Shown: in pieces, positions 4,920 through 28,386 of the stretch
How positions within the stretch are numbered: position 1 is the stretch's first letter
Layout: each line of letters opens with the position of its first letter
NCBI GenBank assembly: GCA_934435205.1
Contig: CAKSAK010000005.1
Location: forward strand, 23,906-55,905
Length of the DNA: 32,000 nt
From: an uncultured Ruminococcus sp.
Lineage (GTDB): Bacteria > Bacillota > Clostridia > Oscillospirales > Ruminococcaceae
Reading direction: 5' to 3'
Notes under the pieces: model-generated
What the model saw: only the letters and a program-made list of their open reading frames with translations
The model's database searches: none
Told to the model about the DNA's origin: nothing
Made by a program: the position numbers and the translations under genes

Positions 4920-4934
4920 TATCGTGAATAATCA

Positions 4935-4968
4935 ATGCGGTCTGTGCTTCGGTATAGACCGCATTTTT
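4935..4968 (+). terminator. Rho-independent terminator after ilvE
   Basis: ATGCGGTCT / AGACCGCAT 9-bp stem followed by TTTTT. Confidence 0.75.
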
Positions 4969-4984
4969 CATAGGAGTGATAAAA

Positions 4985-5695
4985 ATGGAACTGCAGCAGA
5001 TAATAGACAAATCACACAGGATAGTTTTCTTTGGCGGTGCAGGGGTATCAACAGAGAGCGGCATACCTGATTTTCGGTCGGTGGACGGGCTTTACAATCA
5101 GAAATATGATCATCCCCCTGAGCAGATACTTAGCCACACGTTTTTTATGCGGCACACAAAGGCGTTCTATGATTTTTACCGTGACAAAATGCTTTGTTTG
5201 ACGGCAAAGCCTAACAAGGCGCATTACAAGCTAGCGGAAATGGAGAGGGCAGGCATACTTTCTTCTGTTATCACCCAGAACATTGACGGACTTCACACAG
5301 CGGCAGGAAGCAAAAAGGTGCTGGAGCTTCATGGAAGCGTTCACCGCAACTACTGCATGGACTGCGGAAAATTCTACACGGCTGAGGATATTTTAAACAG
5401 CACAGGCGTGCCGAAATGCACCTGTGGCGGAACTATCAAGCCTGACGTTGTGCTTTACGAGGAGGGGCTTGATGATGAAACCGTGACGGAGGCGGTGAGA
5501 GAGATCTCTCAATGCGACACGCTTATTATTGCAGGCACTTCTCTGACAGTTTATCCTGCGGCAGGAATGGTGAGATATTTTCAGGGGGATAATCTTGTGC
5601 TGATAAATCGGGACAAGACTTCCATGGACGGTTCCTGCGACCTTGTTATCCATGACAAGGTGGGGGAAACGCTGGACAAGATAGTGATAAAGTAA
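4985..5695 (+). CDS. cobB: NAD-dependent protein deacylase (Sir2 family)
   Basis: GAGVSTESGIPDFRS, TQNIDGLH and a Zn-ribbon CxxC...CxC are present. The track start (GTG 4976) overlaps the SD. ATG 4985 sits 8 nt after AGGAG (4972-4976), so I prefer it. Confidence 0.9.
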   Translation: MELQQIIDKSHRIVFFGGAGVSTESGIPDFRSVDGLYNQKYDHPPEQILSHTFFMRHTKAFYDFYRDKMLCLTAKPNKAHYKLAEMERAGILSSVITQNIDGLHTAAGSKKVLELHGSVHRNYCMDCGKFYTAEDILNSTGVPKCTCGGTIKPDVVLYEEGLDDETVTEAVREISQCDTLIIAGTSLTVYPAAGMVRYFQGDNLVLINRDKTSMDGSCDLVIHDKVGETLDKIVIK

Positions 5696-5731
5696 AGATA
5701 ACAAACGCAATTACAAGGCGAGATAACAAAC

Positions 5732-5754
5732 GGGCGAACGCTGTTCGCCCCTAC
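5732..5754 (-). repeat. REP-like hairpin GGGCGAAC-GCT-GTTCGCCC + CTAC
   Basis: Lies between the convergent sirtuin and ABC genes. On the minus strand the hairpin is followed by GTTTGTT, 45 nt after the ABC stop. It shares the flank CTAC-MGGTGGTGG with the copy at 24262. Confidence 0.8.
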
Positions 5755-5798
5755 CGGTGGTGGGGGTGATATGCGGTCGCCCGTGTTTTTATGTGATT

Positions 5799-7574
5799 TT
5801 ATTCGTCCATATGCTGTGCGGTATAAAGCTTGTAGTATTCGCCCTTCTTTGCGATAAGCTCGTCATGAGTGCCGCACTCTGCGATACCCTTATTGTCGAT
5901 ATACATTATCTTATCGCAGTTTTTGATAGTGGAAAGTCTATGTGCGATAATAAATGATGTTCTGCCAACAAGAAGTCTTTGAAGTCCCTGCTGGAGGAGC
6001 TTTTCTGTTCGTGCGTCTATTGATGAAGTGGCTTCGTCAAGGACAAGTATTTTCGGGTCGGAGAGGAGCGTTCTTGCAAAGGAGATAAGCTGTTTCTGTC
6101 CGCCTGAAAGCTTTGAGCCACGCTCGTTGACCTCGGTCATATAGCCGTCTTTCATTTCGCTTATGAACTCGTCTGCGCAGACTATCTTTGCGGCTTCTCT
6201 TATTTCTTCTTCCGTTGCGTCAAGTCTGCCGTAGCGGATATTATCGTAAATAGTGCCGCTGAAAATAAAGCTGTCTTGGAGCATTATGCCCATTTGTGAG
6301 CGAAGTGAATGCAAGGTCGCCTGACTTATATCCTTACCGTCTATGGTTATCTTACCGCTGTCTAGGTCATAAAATCTTGACAGCAGGGAAACTACTGTAG
6401 ATTTTCCTGCGCCTGTTGGTCCAACGAGGGCAACGCTTTCGCCCGGCTTAACGTCAAAGGAGATATGCTCCAAAACTGTTTTGTCCTGCTCATAGCTGAA
6501 TGTAACGTCATCAAATTTTACTTCGCCTGTGATATCACCGATATCCTGAGCGTTCGGCTTGTCTGCGATAGTGGCAGGCTCGTCAAGAGTTTCAAAGATA
6601 CGCTCAAGATAGGCGATATTGTTGATGAAGTTATTGAAGATGTTTGAAAGGTTCATGATAGGCTGCCAGAAGCTTGAAGCATAGCTTGTCATGGCAACGA
6701 TAGTTCCAAGGCTCACTGCCGCAGGGGTCAGAACCAGCAGACCCACCACGAATATTGCGGCTCTCACAAGAGTAGAAACGTTGTCGGTAGCAGGCCAAAC
6801 AAGGTGTGAATACTTCACGGCGTTTATCCAGCTTTTACGATATTTTTCTGAGAGCCTGTCAAATATCTCAGCGTTTTCTTCCTCACGGGTGAATATCTGG
6901 GTCACTCTTGCGCCTGTGATGTTTTCCTGCAAATAGGCGTTAAGGTTGGAGGACTTGTTGGAAACGTCCTGCCATGCTTTACGCTGTCTTTTCTTTATCA
7001 TCATCATTATGACCGCAAATATCGGCAGACCCGAAAGCACCACCAATGACAGCTTCACGTTCACAAAGAACATGAATATCATAATGAAAAGCATATTAAG
7101 GCACTCGAGTATAACATTGATGATACCGTTTGAGAGCATATCCGACACGGAGTTTACATAGTTTACAACTCTTATAAGAATCTTGCCGTGTGGGCGGTTG
7201 TCGTAATATTCAAATGGCAGTTCCTGCAAATGCTTGAAAAGGTCGGTACGGATATCGAAGATTATATCCTGACCAACAACGGTCATTATCCTTGAACGGA
7301 TAGTGGAGAATGTTATGGACACTGCTATCGTGCCCACAAATGCGAGGGTGAGCAGGACGAGCTGTCCCATGTTTTTCTGCGGAATGGTGTTATCAAGGGC
7401 GTACTGTGTGATAAGCGGTCCGAGAAGTCCCGAAATTGCGGCGAACACGCTGAGCACAAGGGCGGTTATCATTTTGCCCTTATATTTTTTGATATACACA
7501 AAGGAGCGTTTCAGGTGGGCGAAGTCGAATGGAGTTTCAAGGACTTCGTCAACGTCATAACGGTTTCTTGCCAT
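5799..7574 (-). CDS. ABC transporter, fused permease/ATPase (exporter type), subunit 2 of a heterodimer
   Basis: 591 aa with an N-terminal 6-TM domain. Walker A GPTGAGKST, signature LSGGQKQ, Walker B ILVLDEATS. Confidence 0.9.
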   Translation of the reverse strand: MARNRYDVDEVLETPFDFAHLKRSFVYIKKYKGKMITALVLSVFAAISGLLGPLITQYALDNTIPQKNMGQLVLLTLAFVGTIAVSITFSTIRSRIMTVVGQDIIFDIRTDLFKHLQELPFEYYDNRPHGKILIRVVNYVNSVSDMLSNGIINVILECLNMLFIMIFMFFVNVKLSLVVLSGLPIFAVIMMMIKKRQRKAWQDVSNKSSNLNAYLQENITGARVTQIFTREEENAEIFDRLSEKYRKSWINAVKYSHLVWPATDNVSTLVRAAIFVVGLLVLTPAAVSLGTIVAMTSYASSFWQPIMNLSNIFNNFINNIAYLERIFETLDEPATIADKPNAQDIGDITGEVKFDDVTFSYEQDKTVLEHISFDVKPGESVALVGPTGAGKSTVVSLLSRFYDLDSGKITIDGKDISQATLHSLRSQMGIMLQDSFIFSGTIYDNIRYGRLDATEEEIREAAKIVCADEFISEMKDGYMTEVNERGSKLSGGQKQLISFARTLLSDPKILVLDEATSSIDARTEKLLQQGLQRLLVGRTSFIIAHRLSTIKNCDKIMYIDNKGIAECGTHDELIAKKGEYYKLYTAQHMDE

Positions 7575-9338
7575 TCAGACCGCCTCCTTTCCAAAGCCCT
7601 CGTTCTGGAGCTTGAATACCTCATAGTAATAGCCCTTTTTGGCGATAAGCTCTTCATGAGTGCCCATTTCGGTTATTTTGCCGTCGTCAAGGATTATTAT
7701 GACATCTGCGTCCTTGGTGGAGGAGATACGCTGGGCAATGATAAGCTTTGTGCATGGGAAGTCAAGGTTTCTCAGGCTGTCCTGAATATACTTTTCCGTT
7801 TCCATATCCACGGCGGAGGTGGTATCGTCAAGGATAAGAATGGCAGGCTTTATGGCAAGTGCTCTTGCAAGAGACAATCTCTGTTTCTGTCCGCCTGAAA
7901 GACCTACGCCTCGCTCGCCGACGATAGTGTCATAGCCCTCAGGCATTTTCTCAACGAACTCGTTTGCTGCCGCAAGCTTTGCATAGTGCTTAACGTCCTC
8001 TTCAGACATATCGGAATCGCCGTATGCAATATTGCCGTCTATGGTATCAGAGAAAAGCAGGACGTCCTGCGTTGCCATGCCTATCTGCGAGCGGAGCTGT
8101 GAGAGCTTACGCTTTCTTACGTTCACACCGTCAACGAGAACTTCTCCTGAGTTGGTATCATAAAATCTTGGAATGAGGTTTATAAGCGAGGTCTTGCCTG
8201 AACCTGTTTCGCCCATTATGGCAACGGTCTGACCTGCTTTTATCTTGAAGTTCACGTTGTCAAGGACTATATGCTTGCCAAACTTGAAGGTAACGTCCTT
8301 GAACTGGATATCTCCGTGAAGCCTTTCTGTCTGGTCAACTGCGTCTTCACGGTCGGAGATGATAGGTCTTGCATAGTATATCTCGATGACCTTCATTGCG
8401 GAAGCCATGAACCTTTGCATATCGTTCACATAGATACCAAGGTTTCTGACAGGGTTTGCGATGCCCCAGATAAGTCCTGAGATAGCAACATACTCGCCCA
8501 TGGTTATTTCCCCTTTTATAAGGAAAAATCCGCCGCCAAGGAGCATTATAACTGACAAGGCGTTTGCGAAAGCTTCCATATAAGGAAAGAATTTCAGCCA
8601 CAGGAGTGAGGCTTTTTTGTTTGCATCGGAATAATCTTTATTGGCTTTTTGGAACTTTTCTATCTCATAGTCCTCACGGGCAAAGGCTTTTACAACTCTA
8701 TTGCCTGAGATGTTCTCCTGAGCGTCTGTATTCATTTTGGATAGCTTCTCACGGAGGTCAACGTAGACCGGCTTTGCCTTTTTATCAAGAAGCACCACCA
8801 CGCCAAATATGAATGGTGTAACAGCCAGCAGGAGAAGTGCCATTTTCCAGCTTACCATAAAGAAATAAACTGACGAGGCTATGAACAGCGAACATGATTC
8901 AAGCATTCCTTTGAAAACGAATGCCACTGCATGACGCACCATATCAAGGTCGCCTGTAAGTCTTGTCATAAGGTCGCCTGTACGGTTGCGGTCATAAAAC
9001 TCCATATCCTGATTTTCGATACGTCTGAAAAGGTGCGTTCTTATTCTGTATATCATGCCCTGAGATGATAATTCATAGGTCATGTTGCAGGTGTACTGAC
9101 AGATAGTTCTAACCAAGGTAAAGCCCACCATGCCTGCAAGCAGCAGCCAGAACAGCTTTCTTTCATGCTCAAGGTTGAAAAGTGCGTCCTTGCTTGAAAG
9201 AAACTTATCCACAAGCTCTTTGCTGAAATAAGGTGTGGTAAGATACAAGGCGTTGCATACGATAGACAGCACAAGGGCTGTTACATAGAATTTTCGGTAG
9301 CCTTTCAGGTTGTGCCATATCCATTGAAGCTGGAACAT
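7575..9338 (-). CDS. ABC transporter, fused permease/ATPase (exporter type), subunit 1 of a heterodimer
   Basis: 587 aa. GETGSGKTS, LSGGQKQR, ILILDDTTSAVD. Its stop directly abuts the start of the downstream paralog (7575/7574). Confidence 0.9.
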   Translation of the reverse strand: MFQLQWIWHNLKGYRKFYVTALVLSIVCNALYLTTPYFSKELVDKFLSSKDALFNLEHERKLFWLLLAGMVGFTLVRTICQYTCNMTYELSSQGMIYRIRTHLFRRIENQDMEFYDRNRTGDLMTRLTGDLDMVRHAVAFVFKGMLESCSLFIASSVYFFMVSWKMALLLLAVTPFIFGVVVLLDKKAKPVYVDLREKLSKMNTDAQENISGNRVVKAFAREDYEIEKFQKANKDYSDANKKASLLWLKFFPYMEAFANALSVIMLLGGGFFLIKGEITMGEYVAISGLIWGIANPVRNLGIYVNDMQRFMASAMKVIEIYYARPIISDREDAVDQTERLHGDIQFKDVTFKFGKHIVLDNVNFKIKAGQTVAIMGETGSGKTSLINLIPRFYDTNSGEVLVDGVNVRKRKLSQLRSQIGMATQDVLLFSDTIDGNIAYGDSDMSEEDVKHYAKLAAANEFVEKMPEGYDTIVGERGVGLSGGQKQRLSLARALAIKPAILILDDTTSAVDMETEKYIQDSLRNLDFPCTKLIIAQRISSTKDADVIIILDDGKITEMGTHEELIAKKGYYYEVFKLQNEGFGKEAV

Positions 9339-9724
9339 ATTCTTTCACTCTCCTTTTATTCTTCTAAACTTCATGCTCTCATAGGCACATATATAAAAAT
9401 ATGAAACCCATATTCTTTTTAAGCTATGGGATATTATAAGCCCTTTTGAAAGTAAAGTCAAGGGGGTAAAAGCATTTAGTTTAAATAAAACAAGCTAAAA
9501 AACCAACGAAGATACGAAGCTTTTGTTGTGCTTTTTCACAAATTATGAATATGTTGTTATCTAACGATAGTCATATTTAGAAGAAAACGTTTTCTTTGAC
9601 TGTTTTATTATATTAAACTAAGTTTTCGTACAATAAAATATCCGCCCTGAGATAACAAAGCGGATAGTAAATATTTTTGGTTGTCACAAAAATGGGTGAC
9701 AGAGCGGACGAGAATTTGCAAAGC

Positions 9725-9747
9725 GGGCGACCTCAGGCCGCCCCTAC
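9725..9747 (-). repeat. REP-like hairpin GGGCGACC-TCA-GGCCGCCC + CTAC
   Basis: Same variant as 1676 with one A.C mismatch. Lies 20 nt downstream of the phosphatase stop. Confidence 0.75.
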
Positions 9748-11970: not shown

Positions 11971-12019
11971 GTAGGGGGACGGCATTTTCTGAACACGGGC
12001 GAACGCTGTTCGCCCCTAC
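11971..12019 (-). repeat. REP-like unit: GTAGGGGGACGGC head fragment + GGCATTTTCTGAACAC-GGGCGAAC-GCT-GTTCGCCC-CTAC
   Basis: The segment starts with GTAGGGG and ends with CCCCTAC (7-bp terminal inverted repeat). The 39-nt right part is near-identical to 27085-27123 (3 differences). Confidence 0.8.
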
Positions 12020-12081
12020 CGATGTTTGTGGGGTTATCAAGGGTTGAGAGATAAACAATAATGCGAAATGTCAAGGGGGGT

Positions 12082-14567: not shown

Positions 14568-14644
14568 GCGTCTGTAGCTCAGTTGGATAGAGCGCAAGAC
14601 TCCGACTCTTGAGGCCGCAGGTTCGATTCCTGTCAGGCGCACCA
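14568..14644 (+). tRNA. tRNA-Arg (anticodon CCG), CCA encoded
   Basis: Manual cloverleaf: acceptor GCGTCTG/CAGGCGC, D arm GCTC-AGTTGGATA-GAGC, anticodon arm CAAGA-CTCCGAC-TCTTG (CCG), variable AGGCC, T arm GCAGG-TTCGATT-CCTGT, discriminator A + CCA. Confidence 0.9.
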
Positions 14645-14662: not shown

Positions 14663-14670
14663 ACCCAAAT

Positions 14671-14701
14671 TACGCCCTACTTTGTGTAGGGCGTATTTTT
14701 T
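14671..14701 (+). terminator. Rho-independent terminator for tRNA-Arg; copy 1 of a repeated hairpin module
   Basis: TACGCCCTAC-TTTGT-GTAGGGCGTA (10-bp perfect stem) + TTTTTT, followed by GCACCGCT. Confidence 0.75.
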
Positions 14702-14760
14702 GCACCGCTTGGTTTATTTTGTAGTGGAGCTTTACTTTGTTGGCTTGCACCCGTTTTTCT

Positions 14761-14791
14761 TACGCCCTACCTTGTGTAAGGCGTAATTTTT
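14761..14791 (+). repeat. Copy 2 of the terminator-like hairpin module
   Basis: TACGCCCTAC-CTTGT-GTAAGGCGTA (one mismatch) + ATTTTT + GCACCGCT. No gene lies upstream of it. Confidence 0.7.
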
Positions 14792-14919
14792 GCACCGCTG
14801 ATATAGTTTTGCAAAATAAAGCACTTTGTCTGCTCGCCGTGACGGGCGATTTACGCCCAACTTTCTTCTAAACCTTACTATTACGCCGCTGGGTGTAGTT
14901 GATTGTTATTTTTTACTTT

Positions 14920-14940
14920 GTAGGGGCGTGCCCCTGCACC
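14920..14940 (+). repeat. REP-like hairpin GTAG-GGGC-GT-GCCCC-TGCACC
   Basis: GTAG head plus the same GC palindrome as 14645-14662. It is followed by a further hairpin ATATCCGC-N14-GCGGATAT + TTTATT. Confidence 0.7.
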
Positions 14941-15034
14941 ATATCCGCTATCATTTATGGTGGCGGATATTTTATTGCCGCCCATTGGTGTGATATGCTG
15001 GGAGAGCTATGATGTTCGCCGTGACGGGCATTTT

Positions 15035-15064
15035 ACGCCTTACTTTGTGTGGGGCGTTTTATTA
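15035..15064 (+). repeat. Copy 3 (degenerate, G-U containing) of the terminator-like hairpin module
   Basis: ACGCCTTAC-TTTGT-GTGGGGCGT + TTTTATT. It is preceded by TCGCCGTGACGGGC, which also precedes a degenerate copy at 14834-14857. Confidence 0.6.
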
Positions 15065-15538
15065 ATTGCATATTTCATTAAGGCACTTTGTCACACGCCT
15101 GCGCAGTTCTTCTCCTCCAAAGGGAAAGCCGAACTCTGCGGCGGAGCTTCCCCACTCTGGTGGGTGCTTCTTTGAGCCGTCAAAATAGCGGCTTTTCACC
15201 ACGCCACGATAGCGTTTTGGCATTTTTGCCGCAAGCTCCTCACATTCTCTCAAGCGAAGCTGCACCTTTGCAAGATCAAGCCACAAGTCAGTAAGCTTTT
15301 TCCCTCTGTGGGCTACCCTGCCGCAATGCTCCCCCACTGCGGCAAGCTGTGAGGACATTTCGCAGATATCTTCTTTAAGCTTCCACTCCTGCCACCTTAG
15401 TTTGCGATACTGTGAAAGCTTTCGCAGTGCGGCTGTATTAGCTCTGCTTCCACCGCTTCTGAAATTATATCGGCTCGCTGAGGGCGCAAGCCTTTTTATG
15501 GAATTTACCTCTACGGAATAATCTATATTATCGTACAT
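15062..15538 (-). CDS. Small sigma-70 region-4-like / phage-type (ArpU/RinA/DUF1492-like) transcriptional regulator; family assignment is weak
   Basis: C-terminal MPKRYRGVVKSRYFDG...LRRRVTKCLNEI resembles a region 4.2 layout (LPxRxRxVxxLRYxxG ... HTH). I prefer ATG 15538 (AGGAG 4 nt upstream) over the track start 15568, which has no SD. Confidence 0.45.
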   Translation of the reverse strand: MYDNIDYSVEVNSIKRLAPSASRYNFRSGGSRANTAALRKLSQYRKLRWQEWKLKEDICEMSSQLAAVGEHCGRVAHRGKKLTDLWLDLAKVQLRLRECEELAAKMPKRYRGVVKSRYFDGSKKHPPEWGSSAAEFGFPFGGEELRRRVTKCLNEICN

Positions 15539-16655: not shown

Positions 16656-18359
16656 TTAGTATAACGATTGTGCAGGTATTTCTTCAAATGTTCCTATTTT
16701 GTCAAACAGTTCCTTTGTTACATAGATGGTTATATATTGGTCATTTGTTTTAAACTTATAAGGTTTATAAACCTCTACTCGCTTTACGGCAACATAATCA
16801 TCGACATCAATATTAGGGTATATCTTTGTTATTTCACAACGATCAATAACAACATCAGGAGCTCCCTGTTCACGCCACTTATCAAAAATCGTTTTAGTTT
16901 CTTCTTCAGTTGATGATTGATAGTACATAAATGTTTTATTATGGTTATCAATATTGTAGTTGTAAAAAATATTGTCATCAAAATACGGAAGAATAGCTGT
17001 AGCCAATGCCTGAAGTTTTGGATAATCATGCCATTGATAGTCAGATTCATCAACCTTTGAGTCAGTTTTTTTTGAAGTATCATTACTTACAGCGATGTGT
17101 CCCCATGACGATAAAATTTTATAATCATAAAGCCTATATTCTTTGATAAACTCTGCAGCTTCTTTATACCAATAATCAAAGCGGACATCGATATATGAAG
17201 AATATGCACTCCATGCAATAGGCACTACCATAGGCAAAAAAGCTATAGCTACTACTACTTTTTTCAAACCTCCTCTAAGGGAAGAAACCGCCTTATTTAT
17301 GTACTCTGGCAACTCAATTTTGCCGTTATCGGCGAGTATACCCCAAAACACAAATATCAAAAATACACCAACCATCCCCGAATGATAAGGCGAAGAATAA
17401 ATTAATGCCGAAAACAATCCAAAAAACGAATATGGTATTATAAAAGTAAGAAGCTTTTTATTTTTATGCAGAATACTTACTGCAATAATGAACACCAAAA
17501 TTGCGGTGATAAACTGAGGTATAATACTTGCCACATCATATGAATCCAGTTTACTGTCTGGCATTTGTATCAGAAAAGCTTCAGAGAGATACATTATATA
17601 CCACATTACTTGAACGTAACTGAACGAGAATGCAAACAATTCTTTTGTTGTTTCATGACCTGCGGTATATGTATTTTCATTTGGAAAAATCTCTATAATT
17701 ATTGCTATTGCCAGAACAAGCAGACCAAGCATCATCCAACAGTGTTTGTCAGAAAATATTTTTAAAAATGTTTTTTCTTTAACATACTTGCTTATTATTT
17801 CTGAAAGCCACACCACACACAATCCACCTGCAAATATTATACCAAACGAGTGAATCATACACATAAATGCCAATGAAAATACATACCTTAGTGGCTTTTC
17901 ATTTCGGGAGGAATAAAATACTGCTGCGAGAAAAAATGACAATGTTAAGATAGAATAGGGTCTGCTAATAACACCGTACTGATAAAACAGGAAGAAGTTA
18001 AATGGCAGCAGACAACGTATCAGCTTTGGAAAAGGCGACTTAAAGAGCAACACTGCTACTGCAAGAGTCATGAAAAAGATATTTACTATGGCAAGGGACA
18101 GCTCATATGGTGCGCCAAGCTTTGCGAAAGGCACCAATATCAAATGCCACAGCGGCGGGTGACCCTCATAGTGTGGTATCTCAAAAAGTATCTCCTTTAT
18201 AGTTCCCGAACGTGCTATCGCCCACGACTGAGCTTCATCAAACCACGGCTCGTGAAAAAACGATATAGTGCAAACGCCAAGCAGGTATATTATCAGCGTT
18301 ATAACATCGCATTTTCCATGCTCTTTACTGAACGCCCAGCTTTTAAATTTCTCTTTCAT
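16656..18359 (-). CDS. Polytopic membrane glycosyltransferase, GT-C fold (PMT_2/ArnT-like), with C-terminal soluble domain
   Basis: 567 aa, about 11-13 TM segments. First-loop motif FHEPWFDEAQSW resembles the DE-x-x-(Y/W) acidic loop of GT39/GT83 enzymes. GGAGG lies 6 nt before the ATG. The gene is AT-rich: spot counts give 25-32% GC per 60-nt line here versus 50% on one 60-nt metG line. Confidence 0.65.
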   Translation of the reverse strand: MKEKFKSWAFSKEHGKCDVITLIIYLLGVCTISFFHEPWFDEAQSWAIARSGTIKEILFEIPHYEGHPPLWHLILVPFAKLGAPYELSLAIVNIFFMTLAVAVLLFKSPFPKLIRCLLPFNFFLFYQYGVISRPYSILTLSFFLAAVFYSSRNEKPLRYVFSLAFMCMIHSFGIIFAGGLCVVWLSEIISKYVKEKTFLKIFSDKHCWMMLGLLVLAIAIIIEIFPNENTYTAGHETTKELFAFSFSYVQVMWYIMYLSEAFLIQMPDSKLDSYDVASIIPQFITAILVFIIAVSILHKNKKLLTFIIPYSFFGLFSALIYSSPYHSGMVGVFLIFVFWGILADNGKIELPEYINKAVSSLRGGLKKVVVAIAFLPMVVPIAWSAYSSYIDVRFDYWYKEAAEFIKEYRLYDYKILSSWGHIAVSNDTSKKTDSKVDESDYQWHDYPKLQALATAILPYFDDNIFYNYNIDNHNKTFMYYQSSTEEETKTIFDKWREQGAPDVVIDRCEITKIYPNIDVDDYVAVKRVEVYKPYKFKTNDQYITIYVTKELFDKIGTFEEIPAQSLY

Positions 18360-18770: not shown

Positions 18771-19238
18771 CTAGAACTTCACGCCCCAACTGAAATTCTC
18801 AGGGAGATCGTCAAGTTTGTTCGCAGGGTCAGGATACTGCCCTACTATGCTTTTAGACGTGGGTGTTCTTGAATCACACCACTGTGCAAGCTTGTATCTG
18901 CCGTCCTCCCCTGCTATCCAAAAGGCATAGCCTGCATTATCGCCATTGACGTTAAGTGCGTCATGGACGGCTTTTTCAAGCTTTTTGGATTCGTCAGGTT
19001 CAGCGGAGCAATCGATCACAGCCGTGCATGACTGAACGTCGATATCTTTGCCCTCACACTGCATATCTGTCACGACCGCATTTACAGTATTGAACACTAT
19101 CTTTGCATTGCTGTTTGCGCTTTTATGCTTCGCTTTTCTGATATAACTCATCATAGTTGGCACAAGAATAGCCGCAAGTACGCCTATTATGGCAATAACC
19201 ACCACAAGCTCCACCAAAGTAAAGCCTTTTTTATTCAT
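18771..19238 (-). CDS. Type IV pilin-like protein (prepilin N-terminal cleavage/methylation domain), paralog 2
   Basis: MNKKGFTLVELVVVIAIIGVLAAILVP is a class III signal peptide (G/FTLVE). It shares the AQW...GQYPDP C-terminal motifs with paralog 1. Confidence 0.88.
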   Translation of the reverse strand: MNKKGFTLVELVVVIAIIGVLAAILVPTMMSYIRKAKHKSANSNAKIVFNTVNAVVTDMQCEGKDIDVQSCTAVIDCSAEPDESKKLEKAVHDALNVNGDNAGYAFWIAGEDGRYKLAQWCDSRTPTSKSIVGQYPDPANKLDDLPENFSWGVKF

Positions 19239-19458: not shown

Positions 19459-19971
19459 TTACCAGTTAGTAATCTTTGAGCCGAATGCCTTGTTAGCCTT
19501 ATCTGCGTCCTTGCAAGGATCAGGATACTGACCAAGAACACCCTTAGTTGGATCTGTAACATCAGACCACTGAGCGTACTCAACGTTACCAGAAGTACCG
19601 ATAGAATATACGCAATAGCCAGCACCATCGCCATTGTCCTTAAGTGCCTCATATACAGCGTTGCCAAGCTTTACCTTCGTTGTTCTAGTATCGTTACCAG
19701 AAGCAGGAGCAGCTGATGCCAATGTCTTGATCTCAACACGTGCTGTCTGACCATCGCCAGAACCAACTGTTTCACCATTTACGAGCATATCAGCAGCTTC
19801 GTTGTTTACAGTTGTGAAAACGAGCTTAGCGTTTGAGTTAGCTGTCTTGAGCTTTGACTTCTTTACATAGTTCATCATTGTAGGAACGAGGATAGCTGCA
19901 AGAATACCGATGATAGCGATAACAACTACGAGCTCTACAAGGGTGAAACCTTTTCTGTTAGATTTCTTCAT
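19459..19971 (-). CDS. Type IV pilin-like protein (probable major pilin), paralog 1
   Basis: MKKSNRKGFTLVELVVVIAIIGILAAILVP. I prefer ATG 19971 (GGAGG 8 nt upstream) over the track start 19986, which lies inside the SD. It has a consensus promoter and a strong terminator. Confidence 0.9.
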   Translation of the reverse strand: MKKSNRKGFTLVELVVVIAIIGILAAILVPTMMNYVKKSKLKTANSNAKLVFTTVNNEAADMLVNGETVGSGDGQTARVEIKTLASAAPASGNDTRTTKVKLGNAVYEALKDNGDGAGYCVYSIGTSGNVEYAQWSDVTDPTKGVLGQYPDPCKDADKANKAFGSKITNW

Positions 19972-20099
19972 AGAAAATCCCTCCATAATAAATTAAATAA
20001 ATTTGTTTATAAAAGTGCCGCAAGCCGATTTAAGCGACTACTTTCCAATAATTAAGTGGCTTTCGGAGTTCTTTGTGTTCTCCTTATCACCATGATTAA

Positions 20100-20400: not shown

Positions 20401-21669
20401 CTATTTGTATAATTCCTTCATCTTATTATACAGATTTTCAGAAGCGTTTTCTATCTCCGCCCTGCCATAATAGAGCGACTCGGAGGTGCTTATAAAAAGG
20501 TCAAGTACCCCCTGATCTTCAAGCTTCGGGGACATTATTTCAAGCTCCTCTGAGTTTGCCATTTTCTCGTTGGCTTTATACTCTATCCCGTCAAGCATAT
20601 CCCTTGCTTCAAGGGCTTCCAATGCCGCCTTTGATGCAGGCACGCCCTTTCCTATGCCCTGCAGGAGAGCCATTTCCTCACCGTTCACAAGATAGTCAAG
20701 AAGCTTTGCGGCTTCCTCAGGGGACTTGGTATTTTTCTTTATAGCATAAACGCTGGTGGGCTTTTTATACCAACCGCTGCTCACGGCCTGCTTATGCTTT
20801 GGATAGTCGCCTATAACGATGTCAAAGCCAAGCTTCTGAGCAGGCTCGCAGTAATACTCTGCGTCTGATATCCAGGAAGCCACTCCTGCCGTCAGGCACT
20901 TTTCGAGATCGTTCCTATCGAAATCCCACGCAGGCTTTGTGACCTTTTTATTCAGCATTTCCTGATAAAAGGCGAGCATGAGCCTTACGTCCTCCGTGGT
21001 ATACTGAAACTCACCGCTGTCGGAGAACATTTTTCTTCCCGTTGCCTGCTCCACATAAGCCACAGAGCTGAGATAAGCCGCCTTTTTCGTCATTTCAACA
21101 GGATAGACCTCGTCTGACTTCATGACCTCTGCCGCATTTATAAGGTCAGACCAATTTTCAGGCAGGCTCAGACCATAGCTGTCATACATCGTCTTATTAT
21201 AGTAGAAGGTTATACAATTCGTACCGGTAGGCAAGGCGTTAAGCTTGCCGTTTATAGTGCCGTATGAAAGGCTGTCATCATCAAATGCTGAAAGATTTAT
21301 GTATTCTGACAGCTCATTAAGGTCATAAAAGCCCTCGCCGTCGGGAGAATATTCATAGAGCCAACTGTAGTTTAGCTGCATGATATCTGCGGTGGTGTCA
21401 GAGAAAAATTCCACGTCCATTCGTGTTTTGAAGCCGTCAAAGTCTGCATACTCAGGTCTTACCACAACGTTCTTATTGCTGTTCTGATAGGCTTTAAGTC
21501 CGTCGAGAGTATACTCGTTACGCACGTCCTTGCCCCACCACGAGAAGGACACCTCGGTCTTTACAGTATGCTCCATTCTTCTTTCAGACAATGCACAGCC
21601 CGTCATGACCGTCGCTGTGCAGATCGCTGAAGCGGTCAAAGCCGCACACTTCACAATGCGTGTTTTCAA
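20401..21669 (-). CDS. ABC-type extracellular solute-binding lipoprotein (carbohydrate SBP family-like)
   Basis: 422 aa. Signal peptide with lipobox (TATVMTG/C). TTG start with GAGGTG 8 nt upstream. SBP_bac_1/8-like length and composition. No permease or ATPase genes lie adjacent. Confidence 0.8.
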   Translation of the reverse strand: MKTRIVKCAALTASAICTATVMTGCALSERRMEHTVKTEVSFSWWGKDVRNEYTLDGLKAYQNSNKNVVVRPEYADFDGFKTRMDVEFFSDTTADIMQLNYSWLYEYSPDGEGFYDLNELSEYINLSAFDDDSLSYGTINGKLNALPTGTNCITFYYNKTMYDSYGLSLPENWSDLINAAEVMKSDEVYPVEMTKKAAYLSSVAYVEQATGRKMFSDSGEFQYTTEDVRLMLAFYQEMLNKKVTKPAWDFDRNDLEKCLTAGVASWISDAEYYCEPAQKLGFDIVIGDYPKHKQAVSSGWYKKPTSVYAIKKNTKSPEEAAKLLDYLVNGEEMALLQGIGKGVPASKAALEALEARDMLDGIEYKANEKMANSEELEIMSPKLEDQGVLDLFISTSESLYYGRAEIENASENLYNKMKELYK

Positions 21670-23168
21670 CTGCGGCTCACCTCTTCCTCTTTTTTATCAT
21701 ATATCACCGCTCTTGCGTCCTCGCTGTGTTCTGCTTCTTCGCAGGCTTTTTCTGCCATTTCGTAAAGTTCATCATAATCGTCGCTTGTTTCAGGGTAGAC
21801 CGACGCACCCACTGCACATTTTATGTAGCCCCTGTCATCGTCAAGGCAACACTCCTTCAGCTTATCGTTAAGCTCTTTAACATAAGCCCTCACATTACCA
21901 TAGGCTTTTACAAGGTCAAAGTTCGTGTGGTCTGCAAACAGAGCAAACTCGCCCTCCCTGAAAATTCCGCAGATATCGCCCTCCCTGCGGTTCTCCACCA
22001 GTATTTCGGCGACCTTTCGCTCAGCTTCCGCCACTGTCTCCTCGCCATAGTTTAGCCTTATAAGCTCCAGATTTGTTATTTTCACGATAATAAATGCGAT
22101 AGTCGAGCCTGAGATACAAGTTTCCATTTTATCCATAATGCTGTTTTCGGTATATTCCGCAGTGAAAAGCCCTGTATTTTCGTCCACCTTTGGATATTTT
22201 CCAAACTTTGGTCCGTTCTGCGGGTCGTTATCCGCCGCCGCTGCCGCAGATATCATAATAAATATAACTGCGCAGCAAATAAAGATACCAAGGCATTTAA
22301 GCCCTGTTCTCACATAGTGACGCAAAGTGTCTGACATATCCACGGTAGTAATGACCACCCAATCGTCACTGCAATCATCAATAGCACAGATAGTAGTCAT
22401 ATCAGAAACGGTGACGCCAGTGCCTCCATCAAGAAATTTAGAAAGCTTTTCATCGAGCTTTTCGCCGACAACACTTTTTCCGTCGTTAGCATAGATTATC
22501 CTGCCTTCGTCATCACACAGCATGGTATTTATCTCGCTGTAATTGTCAGAGGGCAGAAAAACAAGATCAAACTCCGTTGAAAACACAGAGGAGATAAAAA
22601 TAAGATCGTCATTTATCCTGCCTGCGAAATACACACGTCTGTAGTTATCGTCCTGTCCCGTGAACCATTTTATCTTGCTGTCACCCATAAGGTCGGAAAC
22701 TCTCTTGTATATCTCATCGTCAAAGATATCCTTTGTACCGTCGGTTATCTTTCCTACATTATGTTCATTACTGCTTACAATGCCAAAATCTGTATAGTTA
22801 CCCAATGTACTAAGCTCAATAAGCCTATCAGTGAGAACATTTTCTTCATTAAGCACAGCAAATTCGCTCTTTGACGTATCAGTAGGATCATATTTCGCAT
22901 AGTCCTCATTGCCCATTATAAGCTTGGCAGTGTCCTCCATTTTCTTCATAAAGGCAGCCACATTCTGGTCTGCTTCCGCATTTATGGCAGAGCAAAGCTG
23001 AGCCTCTTTCTGAAATGCGTTCACACCGCTGTAATAGCAGGCACACGCATACACAAGCAGACAAGCAACGAACAGCACTAACACGCTTGTTTTCAAAATA
23101 GATCTTCTATACTTTTTTATTTTATCATACAGTTCAAAATCAGCAGAATTTTTCAAAAGCGGTATCAC
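21666..23168 (-). CDS. Membrane receptor: TM - extracytoplasmic Cache-like domain - TM - degenerate GGDEF domain
   Basis: 500 aa. TM1 is at about res 27-47 and TM2 (CLGIFICCAVIFIMISAAAA) at about res 293-312. The C-terminal domain aligns to GGDEF, but DENTGLFTAEY replaces DxLTGLxNR and FREGEF replaces GGDEF/GGEEF. Its stop overlaps the SBP start (TTGA). Confidence 0.7.
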   Translation of the reverse strand: MIPLLKNSADFELYDKIKKYRRSILKTSVLVLFVACLLVYACACYYSGVNAFQKEAQLCSAINAEADQNVAAFMKKMEDTAKLIMGNEDYAKYDPTDTSKSEFAVLNEENVLTDRLIELSTLGNYTDFGIVSSNEHNVGKITDGTKDIFDDEIYKRVSDLMGDSKIKWFTGQDDNYRRVYFAGRINDDLIFISSVFSTEFDLVFLPSDNYSEINTMLCDDEGRIIYANDGKSVVGEKLDEKLSKFLDGGTGVTVSDMTTICAIDDCSDDWVVITTVDMSDTLRHYVRTGLKCLGIFICCAVIFIMISAAAAADNDPQNGPKFGKYPKVDENTGLFTAEYTENSIMDKMETCISGSTIAFIIVKITNLELIRLNYGEETVAEAERKVAEILVENRREGDICGIFREGEFALFADHTNFDLVKAYGNVRAYVKELNDKLKECCLDDDRGYIKCAVGASVYPETSDDYDELYEMAEKACEEAEHSEDARAVIYDKKEEEVSRS

Positions 23169-23242
23169 CTCTCAGGCTAAATTATTACAATCATTATTAA
23201 TTATAACACATATGCCCATAAAATAAGTGATTTTTTTGTTAA

Positions 23243-23542
23243 TTATCGCTCAATTTGTAATGTACGGTTTATATTTTCTCTGACACGGCACTGTCTTACC
23301 TTCTTCGCATGGCGTTTTTTCTTGGTCTCCGCTTCAAAAAGCGACAGTGCCGCCCATGCCGCCGTCAGCACGATGCCTGCGGCAAACACTGCACCCATGT
23401 TTCTCTCCGCTACCGCAACAAGCAGGAAAAACAGCACCATTCTCATTATAGTTTTCATAAGCCACCTGTCACCGCCTGCACCTGCCGCAACGATAAAAAC
23501 ATTCATCATGATTATCCATATCATTTTTACACACATCCTCAT
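23243..23542 (-). CDS. Small hydrophobic protein (2-3 TM), unknown function; start uncertain
   Basis: 99-aa ORF with hydrophobic segments and a basic C-terminus. Same strand as the receptor gene and 74 nt upstream of it. Weak SD. No family recognised. Confidence 0.35.
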   Translation of the reverse strand: MRMCVKMIWIIMMNVFIVAAGAGGDRWLMKTIMRMVLFFLLVAVAERNMGAVFAAGIVLTAAWAALSLFEAETKKKRHAKKVRQCRVRENINRTLQIER

Positions 23543-23670
23543 ATTTTTCTATTTCGGGGCTGTATGTATGATAACACAACTTCATGAATTTGAGGGGTAA
23601 TTTTTTGGACAGCAAGATTTTTGTCGATATGCACAGATAAGAACGTTTGTTTTGATAAAAATTCTACAAA

Positions 23671-23706
23671 TCCAAAAGACCCCGTGGCAAAAGCCGCAGG
23701 GTCTTT
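23671..23706 (-). terminator. Orphan rho-independent terminator inside the 0.8-kb spacer
   Basis: Minus strand: GACCCTGCGGC-TTTT-GCCACGGGGTC (one mismatch, one G-U) followed by TTTTGGATTTG. No annotated gene ends here. Confidence 0.55.
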
Positions 23707-23855
23707 CAGAGAAGTAAGAAGTATAATATGAAGAAAAAATTATGAATGGGGAATGCTTAAGTTATGTATTTTCCTATGCCATTTCACTTTTGCCGCACTC
23801 TGAAAATTCAGAGTACAGCGTTATGAAATGAAAAGAAGAATGAAGGAAAATTATT

Positions 23856-24029
23856 GGGCAATGCCACGCAAGGATTGTGCGTAAGATGCGTAGTCAGATT
23901 TTTCGTCAGATCATCTAAAAGTGACGCAGGCTGGCTGACGCCAGTCAAGGAGCTTTTGGGTGATATGGCGGAAAATCTGCAAGCAGATTGCGTGCAAAGC
24001 CGACAGGCGTTCCTTGTGCGGCATTGCCC
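23856..24029. repeat. 174-bp element bounded by 18-nt inverted repeats (structured RNA or MITE-like element)
   Basis: GGGCAATGCCACGCAAGG (23856-23873) versus CCTTGTGCGGCATTGCCC (24012-24029): 10 + 5 bp around a 3-nt internal mismatch. Internal hairpins include AATCTGC-AAG-CAGATT and GGCTGGC-TGAC-GCCAGTC. Confidence 0.6.
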
Positions 24030-24261
24030 ATGTATGAAAACTCATTATAAGTAATTGGTTGGCGGAACTTTCAGCAAGCTCTCAAAGCTTTTGCCTGAGG
24101 TCTTTCTCGGTGTTCCTCTGACCTTGTATATATAATACCTGTTTAATATGATAGTTTTATGAAAAGACCCTGAAAATAAGCTGATAAGAAAAGCAAAGTG
24201 GTTTTCATAAAAATACAGTACACAAAGCCTGCTCACATCAGCATACACCATGCCACCACCT

Positions 24262-24284
24262 GTAGGGGCGAACAGTGTTCGCCC
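24262..24284 (+). repeat. REP-like hairpin in opposite orientation: GTAG-GGGCGAAC-AGT-GTTCGCCC
   Basis: Reverse complement of the 5732/11997/27101 type. Followed by GTTTTT on the plus strand. The flank CCACCACCT-GTAG mirrors the flank of the 5732 copy. Confidence 0.8.
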
Positions 24285-24300
24285 GTTTTTAACTTTCGCA

Positions 24301-24338
24301 CACAAAACGAGGGCAGACCATTGTCCACCCTCGTTTTT
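24301..24338 (-). terminator. Terminator after the AraC::GGDEF gene (bidirectional shape)
   Basis: AACGAGGG-N14-CCCTCGTT. The minus-strand reading is followed by TTTTGTGTG and the plus-strand reading by TTTGC. Confidence 0.7.
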
Positions 24339-24343
24339 GCTCT

Positions 24344-25195
24344 CTATTTCTGCTCTGCTTTCGCAAAATGCACCTCTCCGTCATTTCTCGCAAAGCTTAT
24401 GACCTCGTCAAAATCATGACAAAGCATGGAATATTTCAGCGGCTTTCTTATCATCACCGCTCCCGACCTTATGGATACCGGCACTGTTCCGTCCTTGTAT
24501 GCCGTTTCAATGCCGTTTTTCGCCATGACGGCTTTCGCTATCTTTGTCACCTGGTCAACATCGTCAAGCCCTGTGACCATAACGAACTCGTCACCGCCTA
24601 TCCTAAGCACAGGCATATCTTCTCCTGCGGCGGCGTTTATCCTTTTAAGGCTCTCAAGTATCACCTTATCTCCTGCTTCTCTGCTGATATCGTCATTTAT
24701 CCTCATCAGCCCCACAATGTCAAAGCACAATACATATGTGCCTGTTCTTTCGTTAAGATAATCAAAAAGCTCAGTTACGTCAAATTTCTTGTTGCCCATA
24801 TAATACGCTCCTTCTAAATAGTCACGGTTGAGCTTCGGAAAAAGTCCACAGCTCTTGTTCCACTCTTTCTTGAACACTGAGGGTGCAACGCCCCACTGCT
24901 TTGTGAACGCCCTTGTAAAGACCTCATGGGAATTATACTGATACTTCATGGCGATATCCATGACCGTCATATTAGTGTTCAGAAGATCCATTCCTGCATT
25001 TGTGAGCCGTCTTTTGGAGATATACTCCTTAAGGCTTGTGTGGGTGGCGTATCTCCAAAGCTTTTGAAGCGCAGAAAGAGAACAATAGCACACTGCGGCT
25101 ATATCCTCCTGTGTGAACTCACTGCACAGATTTTGCTCGATATAGTCAAGCGCTGTGGTGAAAATACAGAAATTGTTCTGATCTTCTTTTCTCAT
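24344..25195 (-). CDS. AraC-family HTH (N-terminal) fused to a compact GGDEF domain (C-terminal)
   Basis: Res about 10-110 match the AraC/XylS double HTH (SLSALQKLWRY...RRLTNAGMDLL...IAMKYQYNSHEVFTRAFTKQWGVAPSVFKK). The C-terminus has FDIVGLMRINDDISREAGDKVI...LRIGGDEFVMV...FARNDGEVHF. There is no RxxD I-site (AGED instead). Confidence 0.8.
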   Translation of the reverse strand: MRKEDQNNFCIFTTALDYIEQNLCSEFTQEDIAAVCYCSLSALQKLWRYATHTSLKEYISKRRLTNAGMDLLNTNMTVMDIAMKYQYNSHEVFTRAFTKQWGVAPSVFKKEWNKSCGLFPKLNRDYLEGAYYMGNKKFDVTELFDYLNERTGTYVLCFDIVGLMRINDDISREAGDKVILESLKRINAAAGEDMPVLRIGGDEFVMVTGLDDVDQVTKIAKAVMAKNGIETAYKDGTVPVSIRSGAVMIRKPLKYSMLCHDFDEVISFARNDGEVHFAKAEQK

Positions 25196-25234: not shown

Positions 25235-25246
25235 AGTAACGTTACT
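25235..25246. promoter_or_regulatory. Perfect 12-bp palindrome AGTAACGTTACT upstream of the AraC::GGDEF gene
   Basis: Located 40-51 nt upstream of the ATG, adjacent to a minus-strand TATAAT. Its function is unknown. Confidence 0.3.
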
Positions 25247-25294
25247 GTACTTATAGTATAGCATACTTTTTATTACTGTGCTTGATTTTTTGAG

Positions 25295-27084: not shown

Positions 27085-27123
27085 GGCAATTTCTGAACAC
27101 GGGCGAACACTGTTCGCCCCTAC
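27085..27123 (-). repeat. REP-like unit GGCAATTTCTGAACAC-GGGCGAAC-ACT-GTTCGCCC-CTAC
   Basis: 39-nt near-copy of 11981-12019. Confidence 0.8.
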
Positions 27124-27273
27124 ATATAGATATGGCAGTTACCGTCTTATTATAAAAATAGCGCTTTGGGTATCTTCTACTCAAAGCGCCTTTGCTTGTG
27201 TAAATATTATAACATATTCGCCCCTGTGCTGTCAACTTTTTGCCGACATCTTACGGAAATTTTACATTACCTC

Positions 27274-27399: not shown

Positions 27400-28386
27400 T
27401 TATTTGTAGCAATCGGCAATGTTTGAAATAGCGTCCCTTGCCATTTCCACTGCCCTTTCAGGTCCAAGCACCTTTGCCTGTGATCCAAACTGGAAAAGCC
27501 AGCCCCAGAATGTTGGTGCGACCTGCACCTCCTCATTTATATAGAAGGTATTGTCGGAATTTTTGTGACATATGGTTTTCTCACCAAAACGATCCATTAC
27601 AACATCTATGAGCTTATTGTCAAACTGCAACTGCAACGTCATAAGCTCGCCGCCGTACATTCCGTAGATAGTCTGACGATTTGTGACCTCGGTCTTCTCC
27701 TCCTCGGAAAGCTCCCTCCTGGGGATATCTGTAACAGTGACCTGAGTCATTCTGTCAACTCTGTAGCGGCATATCTTTTCATGCTTTTCGCAATAGCACA
27801 CAAGGTAATAGTTGTCGTTCTCCCAAACCAGAGAATACGGTGAAACCGTATACACCTCGCCACCGTGGCGAAGCTGTTTGCGTTTTTCAACTGTGTATTC
27901 GTAATACTTGAAGCGTATCTCCAAGCCGCTGAAAATGCCCTCTTGTATGCTGTTTATAGCATAGTATATCTGCTCGTTGAAGGTCTTTGTCCTGTTTGAC
28001 ACATAGACCATTCGACGCAGATCCTTTGCCTTGTGTTCTGATGTAAGTGATTGTATCTTCTTTAACAGCTCCTTTGATTTCTTCTGTGTAAGAAACCTGC
28101 TGGAAGCCACTGCGTCCGCAAGAACATACAGCTCCTCGTCCTGAAACAGTCTTTGAGCAAGATAATAAGCGTTGGAGTGACCGTCCTTTGTTATCTCGAT
28201 ATCCATTCCGCTGTCGCAGAGGGTCTTGATATCATCATAGATAGTCTTACGCTCAGCCTTTATGCCGTAGTCGCCCAGAATCTCGATAAGCCTGTTTCCT
28301 GTAATGGTGTGCTTTTCGTCTGTCTTGGTCTCAAAAAGCTTTTTCATGGTCAAAAGCTTCTGCTTCTGTCTGGAAACTCCTGTCAC
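27400..28386 (-). CDS. wHTH - WYL - C-terminal extension transcriptional regulator (YafY/PafBC/DriD/BrxR-type architecture)
   Basis: 328 aa. N-terminal winged-HTH region (ITGNRLIEILGDYGIKAERKTIYDDIKTL) and WYL core (YTVSPYSLVWENDNYYLVCYC...YRVDRM). GTG start has GGGGAGGA 9 nt upstream and overlaps the DUF896 stop (GTGA). Confidence 0.85.
   Translation of the reverse strand: MTGVSRQKQKLLTMKKLFETKTDEKHTITGNRLIEILGDYGIKAERKTIYDDIKTLCDSGMDIEITKDGHSNAYYLAQRLFQDEELYVLADAVASSRFLTQKKSKELLKKIQSLTSEHKAKDLRRMVYVSNRTKTFNEQIYYAINSIQEGIFSGLEIRFKYYEYTVEKRKQLRHGGEVYTVSPYSLVWENDNYYLVCYCEKHEKICRYRVDRMTQVTVTDIPRRELSEEEKTEVTNRQTIYGMYGGELMTLQLQFDNKLIDVVMDRFGEKTICHKNSDNTFYINEEVQVAPTFWGWLFQFGSQAKVLGPERAVEMARDAISNIADCYK

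Follow-up and report, generated by a model that had tools for sequence, protein, structure and literature searches.

Do a solute-binding protein (SBP), a membrane receptor and a DNA-binding regulator encoded side by side in an uncultured Ruminococcus form a single pathway that dispenses with phosphotransfer? The question is raised by a 32,000-nucleotide stretch of DNA (contig CAKSAK010000005.1, positions 23,906 to 55,905; hereafter the window), for which an original prediction, made from the letters only, had proposed a three-component sensor with GGDEF domains in the positions of both the kinase and the receiver, the signal passing from the SBP through the receptor to an AraC::GGDEF regulator. 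The analysis reported here instead makes it probable that the region holds two separate signalling units, which are neighbours only by lineage-specific synteny. Unit 1 would be a sensor operon, encoding a small membrane protein, the receptor and the SBP, and Unit 2 a stand-alone regulator. The genes concerned are the following.

24344..25195, minus strand: AraC::GGDEF regulator (Pfam, NCBIfam and PDB profile searches; AlphaFold and Foldseek)
23243..23542, minus strand: gene for a small membrane protein with two transmembrane helices (gene call in public contigs; homologue comparison)
21666..23156, minus strand: receptor, consisting of a first transmembrane helix (TM1), a dCache-like ectodomain, a second transmembrane helix (TM2) and a dead GGDEF fold (Pfam, AlphaFold and Foldseek, alignments, substitution rates)
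20401..21669, minus strand: orphan lipoprotein SBP of the TogB family (Pfam SBP_bac_1, PDB matches, gene neighbourhood)

The minus-strand open reading frames (ORFs) at 24344-25195 (283 aa), 21666-23168 (500 aa) and 20401-21669 (422 aa) lie where the original prediction had placed them, and its domain assignments were borne out by Pfam matches and predicted structures. Its claim that the locus has neither a kinase nor a receiver domain was also correct: HisKA, HATPase and REC domains were sought in all genes of the window, and none was found. Nor does the window contain a permease or ATPase gene of an ABC importer, as had been stated for the vicinity of the SBP; the only ABC genes within these 32 kb (5799-9338) encode fused exporter-type proteins.

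The link between the receptor and the SBP withstood comparison across lineages. Profiles of the receptor, the SBP and the regulator were built and run over the ORFs in all six reading frames of every fetched locus. With 14 clusters in the protein database and 78 metagenome loci, the receptor family is small, and the SBP gene was found immediately downstream of the receptor gene at every locus with enough downstream sequence, down to 23% identity, with a single exception (L126). Counted by lineage, the SBP follows the receptor in 16 of 16 non-redundant lineages and is its sole conserved neighbour, the stop and start codons often overlapping, and no permease or ATPase gene occurs near the pair in any lineage examined. 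In the window, the TTG start of the SBP gene overlaps the receptor stop by 4 nt, and the encoded protein has a signal peptide and a lipobox-like VMTGC at the N-terminus, both of which agree with the lipoprotein SBP originally described. That an orphan SBP passes its signal to a Cache receptor is supported by the invariable order of their genes in the lineages examined; judged by this conservation, the pair is genuine, old and tightly held together.

The exceptional contig, of 2x coverage, was considered as a natural orphan receptor and rejected: the last ~20 receptor residues and the SBP are replaced by other sequence (2835-6365 of that contig), the junction being either a mobile-element insertion or an assembly chimera. 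The replacing sequence holds a 920-aa ORF that by eye, no domain search having been run, resembles a relaxase or mobilisation protein with repeat regions. Public cluster sizes were uninformative as an estimate of gene prevalence, the receptor and the SBP being merged in one 16,515-member cluster at 90% identity; the merger likely stems from fused gene calls across the 4-nt overlap, which makes the cluster statistics unreliable. The cluster sizes of the AraC::GGDEF gene (1029 members) and of a flanking WYL gene (1041) are similar.

The AraC::GGDEF gene does not share in this conservation. Its neighbourhoods were assessed at the 80 best species-level AraC::GGDEF loci, with up to 10 kb of flanking sequence fetched for each; at the locus from the window's own species (L011) the contig ends before the downstream region, and the other 79 loci are informative. 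At 78 of the 79, neither the receptor nor the SBP occurs in the fetched flank; both are near the regulator only in a close relative at 77% identity (L012). No conserved neighbour of any kind was found for the AraC::GGDEF family, and the neighbour clusters that did appear at its loci were rejected as antisense ORFs overlapping the regulator gene itself. Seen from the side of the receptor, 13 of the 16 receptor–SBP lineages have no regulator beside the pair, including some with an equally degenerate GGDEF domain, in which other genes lie upstream. Co-conservation of the three genes in relatives, a test that the original prediction had set for itself, thus failed. The regulator lies upstream of the receptor only in three related lineages, namely, the window's species, a clade at 84% identity and a clade at 58% identity, and the Na+/H+ exchanger gene upstream of the regulator is kept in the same three. 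The adjacency of regulator and receptor, with the exchanger conserved in the same way, is as expected from plain vertical synteny.

Two further configurations were discarded from this count. A 275-281-aa gene upstream of the receptor in a clade at 35% identity (L007-L009) was considered as a divergent AraC::GGDEF gene and rejected, since it encodes an EamA-like membrane protein without similarity to the regulator. A locus with a YetF gene upstream (L005) was not counted as a third configuration; its breakpoint at 24028 coincides with the end of an element resembling a miniature inverted-repeat transposable element (MITE), and may be an assembly join through the repeat.

Comparison of closely related strains shows the same independence at finer resolution. 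We aligned to the window 57 metagenome contigs (L091-L147) from the window's species and the 84% sister clade. Among the 41 informative contigs of the group with 94-98% identity, 17 carry the regulator (all of it in 15, with 2 contigs beginning within the gene), and it is cleanly missing at the locus in 24, where synteny passes from the Na+/H+ exchanger (25317/25329) straight to 24213 or 23854 and the junction joins the exchanger terminator to the tail of the regulator terminator. Both states also occur in the 84% sister clade (L128 and L130 with the regulator, L129 without). In the 23 regulator-less contigs examined in detail, the receptor is always intact at 496 aa, and the SBP is intact at 422 aa in 22, running off the contig end in the remaining one. 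On a neighbour-joining tree of receptor and SBP DNA, the presence and absence of the regulator are interspersed in both sub-lineages, with several sister pairs differing, and because the two states are scattered in this way, we conclude that the regulator cassette has been gained, lost or recombined independently of the sensor genes. Compared with the 84% clade, the window has diverged less at synonymous sites in the regulator (dS 0.46) than in the receptor (0.99) and the SBP (1.20), which hints at a separate history for the regulator. In all contigs that carry the window's exact AraC::GGDEF protein, it was found only behind the Na+/H+ exchanger and at no other locus. The names carried by identical proteins identify the organism as Ruminococcus bicirculans; in this species, Unit 2 is probably an accessory gene that is not required to maintain Unit 1.

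The layout of transcription signals points the same way. The regulator gene has its own promoter region and terminator, and a further terminator-like hairpin, with promoter-like sites after it, lies in front of the receptor operon; by these sequence features, the AraC::GGDEF gene is a transcription unit separate from that operon.

These results leave little room for the relay as proposed, in which the dead GGDEF domain of the receptor would pair with the live GGDEF domain of the regulator and the sugar signal would reach transcription without phosphotransfer, either by sequestration of the regulator at the membrane or by a block on its productive homodimerisation. The two genes do share a strand and are adjacent in three related lineages, and both products contain a GGDEF fold, a domain that functions as a dimer; pairing moreover appears to matter in the regulator family, as 413-aa relatives with tandem GGDEF domains show, and a dead receptor domain that is under purifying selection without a conserved I-site needs some protein partner. 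Set against this, the two genes belong to separate transcription units, the regulator family is ~30 times the size of the receptor family and has neither receptor nor SBP nearby at all but one of its informative loci, receptors with equally degenerate domains have no regulator next door, more than half of the same-species assemblies (24/41) keep the receptor and SBP intact without it, its presence is scattered on the tree, and the lower dS suggests a different history. The AraC::GGDEF protein as a third component is accordingly not borne out, comparative genomics does not support a phosphotransfer-free three-component relay, and we regard that relay as unlikely. Its weaker form, a facultative add-on in a narrow lineage with GGDEF–GGDEF interaction in strains that have both units, is improbable as well. 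R. bicirculans, with natural strains that possess or lack the regulator in an otherwise identical locus, offers a ready-made test of the idea.

Considered on its own, the regulator comprises a MarA/Rob-like AraC double helix-turn-helix (HTH; residues ~8-111) followed by a GGDEF domain (~140-275). Pfam matched HTH_18 at residues 33-110 (E = 1.7e-13) and GGDEF at 150-273 (E = 2.5e-10), with HTH_AraC matched as well. Among PDB sequences, the N-terminal domain matches those of RamA, MarA, SoxS and Rob best (E = 4e-19 to 6e-16), and the NCBIfam models of RamA, Rob and SoxS gave E values of 1e-16 to 3e-18, under their equivalog cut-offs; the protein carries the ~100-aa double HTH typical of the MarA/SoxS/Rob subgroup of AraC/XylS proteins. 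In the AlphaFold model (predicted local distance difference test score [pLDDT] 80), residues 8-111 form seven helices arranged as in MarA, followed by a disordered linker and a GGDEF fold. The latter had rightly been called compact: its Pfam match spans profile positions 30-158 of 161, the first 29 positions being missing. The fold appears complete in the model, which aligns with the GGDEF domain of DosC in Foldseek at a target-normalised template modelling (TM) score of ~0.75, with 154-159 columns on structures of 161-165 residues.

The RIGGDEF motif is intact, as had been noted, and the active site is conserved throughout the family. Among 33 representatives, the most distant at 22% identity, D159, N167, G175-D176 and R198 do not vary, D202, E203 and F204 are conserved in at least 90% across representatives down to the same identity, and active-site residues remain the most conserved positions of the C-terminal domain even at ~22-25% identity. 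The domain possesses the GG[DE]EF motif, the metal-binding Asp and the GTP-binding Asn and Asp of active diguanylate cyclases, and this conserved active site argues for real GTP binding or catalysis, as far as residues can tell. RxxD is absent from the I-site position in the family consensus. A perfect 12-bp palindrome, AGTAACGTTACT, lies in the regulator promoter region at about 25243-25254 and is a possible operator.

The MarA-like::GGDEF fusion is a sizeable family, spread over hundreds of species of Ruminococcus, Oscillospiraceae and other Clostridia. It forms 437 clusters at 90% identity, the best 120 of which nearly all have both domains in roughly 260-413 aa; at least 374 relatives were found in species-representative genomes, and 113 clusters at 50% identity reach E <= 1e-30. 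Some relatives (P0026-P0029, 413 aa) carry two tandem GGDEF domains after the AraC domain, and the 50%-identity library includes variants of 407-624 aa (P0190, P0193, P0201 and P0203). No paper describing AraC-GGDEF or HTH-GGDEF fusions was found in the library of papers searched, and a literature search on cyclic di-GMP (c-di-GMP) signalling in R. bicirculans gave nothing relevant.

We propose that Unit 2 is a one-component protein that would join a monomeric DNA-binding domain of the MarA/Rob type to a GGDEF domain with a conserved active site, and that it is probably a DNA-associated diguanylate cyclase or a GTP-dependent switch needing GGDEF pairing. DNA binding by domains of the MarA type is monomeric; the pairing of GGDEF domains would then have to take place between molecules and, more speculatively, could couple DNA occupancy to c-di-GMP synthesis.

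Turning to the receptor, the ORF of the window is open up to a GTG at 23168, the start given in the original prediction; the ORF stands, and its likely true start is the TTG at 23156 (496 aa), because an AGGTGA Shine-Dalgarno sequence precedes this TTG and in most strains a stop lies two codons downstream of the GTG. In the numbering of the 500-aa ORF, a dCache-like ectodomain occupies residues ~50-280 and a GGDEF-fold domain residues ~325-490; Pfam detects GGDEF at 328-483 (E = 1.1e-11) and dCache_1 at 66-247 (E = 4.7e-5, below the Pfam cut-off), and no EAL domain. In the AlphaFold model (pLDDT 75), TM1 runs on as a long helix and is followed by two PAS-like modules and TM2, and a disordered linker connects these to a GGDEF fold. 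In Foldseek comparisons, the modelled ectodomain matches the dCache structures 7k5n and 8w7p at target-normalised TM-scores of 0.61-0.63, and the C-terminal domain matches many GGDEF structures at ~0.8. The predicted architecture of two transmembrane helices with a Cache-like ectodomain is upheld, and so is the GGDEF fold of the C-terminus, whose failure to match the original prediction had named as a ground for giving it up.

The degenerate signatures that had been pointed out, DENTGLFTAEY and FREGEF, are indeed present. The receptor has KITNLELIRLNYGEETVAEA and REGEF at the positions of DIDNFKNVNDTMGHAVGDQV and GGDEF in its canonical relatives, and alignment with these shows other residues in place of the metal-binding Asp, the GTP-binding Asn and Asp and both glycines of GGDEF; by its residues, the domain does not qualify as an active diguanylate cyclase. 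Several clades of the receptor family retain canonical DIDNFKGVND...GRIGGDEF motifs, and the window's clade and several others are degenerate, each in different ways. Because canonical motifs persist in several clades, the alignments mark the dead GGDEF domain as a state derived from an SBP-coupled diguanylate cyclase. Purifying selection acts on the domain, which is not decaying: between the window and the 84% lineage, the ratio of nonsynonymous to synonymous substitution rates (dN/dS) is 0.09 for the whole receptor and 0.14 for its pseudo-GGDEF domain, receptor clades of 33-89% identity share motifs such as EN.I.DK.ETCISGSTI, and the ORF is full length in 37 of 37 same-species assemblies examined (496 aa, with one 492-aa allele). 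Because the catalytic and GTP-binding residues have all been replaced, yet the domain remains under purifying selection, the output of the receptor in the window's lineage would be non-enzymatic.

Degenerate GGDEF domains often bind c-di-GMP through an RxxD I-site, and the receptor might be such a c-di-GMP receptor, of the PelD, PopA or YdaK type, that binds the product of other cyclases and integrates it with the SBP signal, possibly signalling from the inside out as in LapD. The window allele does have REGD exactly five residues before the GGDEF position. A few other alleles share it; the Arg, however, is not conserved, KEGD stands there in most same-species alleles and SGD, END or SGN in related lineages, canonical members of the family also have no I-site, and by sequence the receptor does not possess a conserved RxxD I-site. 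Moreover, no c-di-GMP riboswitch was found near the receptor, pilin or regulator genes (Rfam, gathering and permissive thresholds), and no PilZ gene lies in the region. We rate this reading, too, as unlikely.

The SBP gives a clue to the stimulus. Besides the Pfam match to SBP_bac_1 (E = 8e-15), it aligns along its entire length with PDB 4ry1 (E = 3e-50) and with TogB (2uvg-2uvj, E = 1e-49), the oligogalacturonide-binding protein of Yersinia (PMC8839585). This homology suggests an acidic plant oligosaccharide as the ligand, and a TogB-like SBP offers a concrete candidate ligand class. For Unit 1 we envisage a plant-derived oligosaccharide outside the cell, perhaps pectic or otherwise acidic, as the ligand of the TogB-like lipoprotein. 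The lipoprotein would dock on the dCache ectodomain of the receptor, by analogy with NspS on MbaA and ScrB on ScrC, and this docking would shift the transmembrane helices. In the ancestral receptor and in several extant relatives, the output would be c-di-GMP synthesis by a canonical GGDEF domain; in the window's lineage, it would most likely be a ligand-dependent protein–protein contact of the pseudo-GGDEF dimer with a partner protein.

The two gene products could also be co-expressed without touching, the SBP mainly serving a distant ABC importer and the receptor sensing a small ligand directly in its dCache pocket. Most dCache domains bind their ligands directly. TogB-family SBPs normally serve ABC importers (PMC8839585), but the receptor–SBP pair is found without exception in 16 lineages, the most distant at 23% identity, its stop and start codons often overlap, there is no permease or ATPase gene nearby in any lineage examined, and SBP genes beside signalling genes typically encode proteins that stimulate those receptors (PMC8050422). 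We accordingly give a distant importer only a slender chance.

Equally slender is the chance that the MarA-like::GGDEF protein is a previously undescribed DNA-binding, c-di-GMP-coupled regulator for which the receptor pseudo-GGDEF domain acts as a membrane decoy. Regulator monomers at neighbouring sites would pair their GGDEF domains for local c-di-GMP production or transcription switching, and in the R. bicirculans lineage the membrane-anchored pseudo-GGDEF domain would capture the regulator when the sugar signal is present or, alternatively, absent. If true, this would amount to a phosphotransfer-free path from an extracellular oligosaccharide to a promoter in strains that have both units. 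That the receptor is a decaying, non-functional cyclase remnant is very improbable, since the loss of all its catalytic residues is offset by the low dN/dS (including that of the dead domain), the full-length ORF in every same-species assembly examined and the motifs shared across divergent clades.

Several points weigh against the division into two separate units and its proposed mechanism. The adjacency and shared orientation of regulator and receptor have been kept in three related lineages, which is more than a one-off. The output step assigned to the pseudo-GGDEF domain, partner included, is pure inference. The SBP ligand rests on homology at roughly 30% identity, and R. bicirculans is reportedly a glucan user, not a pectin user.

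The spacer between the regulator and the receptor had been described as 0.8 kb long and filled with repeats; the repeats were confirmed, and the distance is larger, about 1.18 kb from regulator to receptor, with the small membrane protein gene at 23243-23542 inside it. Its remaining features are as follows.

24304..24333, minus strand: intrinsic-terminator hairpin, CGAGGG...CCCTCG then TTTT, directly after the AraC::GGDEF stop codon (sequence)
24261..24289, minus strand: dispersed intergenic hairpin GGGCGAACACTGTTCGCCCC, resembling repetitive extragenic palindromic (REP) elements (repeat search, terminator scan)
23856..24029, unstranded: MITE-like 174-nt element with 19-nt terminal inverted repeats GGGCAATGCCGCACAAGGA / TCCTTGCGTGGCATTGCCC (inverted-repeat search, folding)
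23673..23706, minus strand: terminator-like hairpin AAAGACCCTGCGGC...GCCACGGGGTCTTT (read from sequence)

The tail of the first of these is the junction in strains without the regulator gene. Promoter-like sites for the receptor operon were found by promoter scan at 23690-23661 and 23627-23600. The MITE-like element folds as a long hairpin (z-score −4.4), and its paired inverted-repeat pattern recurs in 11 fetched loci; the segment 24033-23855 is missing in many strains and the element is present in only some same-species assemblies, so that it looks like a MITE-like insertion polymorphism. A mechanically called 66-aa plus-strand ORF (23854-24054) lying on it is probably spurious. The small protein with two transmembrane helices (93-99 aa) is encoded directly upstream of the receptor and retained in all same-species assemblies; it is 43% identical (E = 1e-21) to its counterpart in the 58%-identity lineage (L006), clusters with those of L012 and L128, and may, in this clade alone, belong to the receptor operon as its third gene. 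The REP-like hairpin (ACGGGCGAACrCTGTTCGCCCCTAC) follows gene 3' ends at 1671-1716, 5727-5772, 9720-9747, 11992-12037, 24261-24289 and 27096-27141, and a second short repeat family, GGGCTGTCGAGGGCGCCAGCCCCTACA, occurs at 12082 and 27045.

Farther out, two genes for type IV pilin- or pseudopilin-like proteins (N_methyl; 18771-19238 and 19459-19986) lie downstream of the SBP gene, with a perfect TTGACA-17-TATAAT promoter-like site at 20308-20280 for the first pilin gene, followed by a gene for a 567-aa multi-transmembrane protein without Pfam or NCBIfam matches (16656-18359). The segment 16656-19986 is strain-variable, many same-species contigs skipping from 18753 to 16687 without the 567-aa gene. 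A 40-nt repeat that contains a hairpin, TTACGCCCTACTTTGTGTAGGGCGTA..., occurs four times at 14670-15072, at spacings of about 90 and 182 nt, just downstream of a tRNA gene (14568-14641). On the other side, a WYL-domain regulator (27400-28386; WYL, weak HTH_11, WCX) upstream of the Na+/H+ exchanger is unrelated to the sensor.

How the two units compare with characterised systems depends on the component considered. Like PelD, PopA and Bacillus subtilis YdaK, the receptor keeps a GGDEF fold without catalysis for signalling; unlike in these proteins, which depend on a conserved RxxD I-site, its I-site is not conserved. Within the receptor family, an enzymatic output has repeatedly given way to a conserved and probably non-enzymatic one, which makes the family a tractable case for the study of dead GGDEF domains without an I-site. 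The regulator resembles Rob in the order of its parts, with the DNA-binding domain N-terminal and an effector domain after it, and differs in that this C-terminal domain is GGDEF, as opposed to the GyrI-like domain generally attributed to Rob. PucR proteins contain a degenerate GGDEF-like domain. The PucR-type regulator MabR similarly places a GGDEF fold and an HTH in one polypeptide, and the effector domain with the HTH is C-terminal in this type (PMC11617747), whereas in the AraC::GGDEF regulator the active site is conserved and the HTH is N-terminal and of the AraC type.

With XylFII-LytS-YesN (PMC8050422 for XylFII-LytS), the locus shares an orphan sugar SBP, a membrane sensor and an AraC-type DNA-binding protein nearby; unlike that system, it lacks both a histidine kinase and a receiver, its AraC domain stands at the N-terminus and resembles MarA, and the third gene is not conserved together with the pair. 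The closest parallel lies with the established class of SBP-stimulated GGDEF/EAL receptors with dCache-like ligand-binding domains, represented by NspS-MbaA and ScrB-ScrC (PMC8050422). As in NspS-MbaA of Vibrio cholerae and ScrB-ScrC of V. parahaemolyticus, an orphan SBP gene lies beside that of a receptor with two transmembrane helices, a dCache-like ectodomain and a cytoplasmic GGDEF domain, and, by analogy, those members of the present family that have a canonical domain would adjust c-di-GMP levels to the occupancy of the SBP. The differences are that the present pair occurs in Firmicutes rather than Proteobacteria, that its SBP belongs to SBP_bac_1/TogB instead of SBP_bac_8 or SBP_bac_3, that the receptor has no EAL domain, and that in the window's lineage the GGDEF domain is dead, with no c-di-GMP turnover, whereas other clades of the family are canonical. 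Going by these sequence relationships, the receptor–SBP pair corresponds, in Clostridia, to the SBP-gated c-di-GMP receptors, with an output domain whose dead state is derived. Receptors of this type, characterised so far in Vibrio and further Proteobacteria, are thereby extended to Clostridia that abound in the gut.

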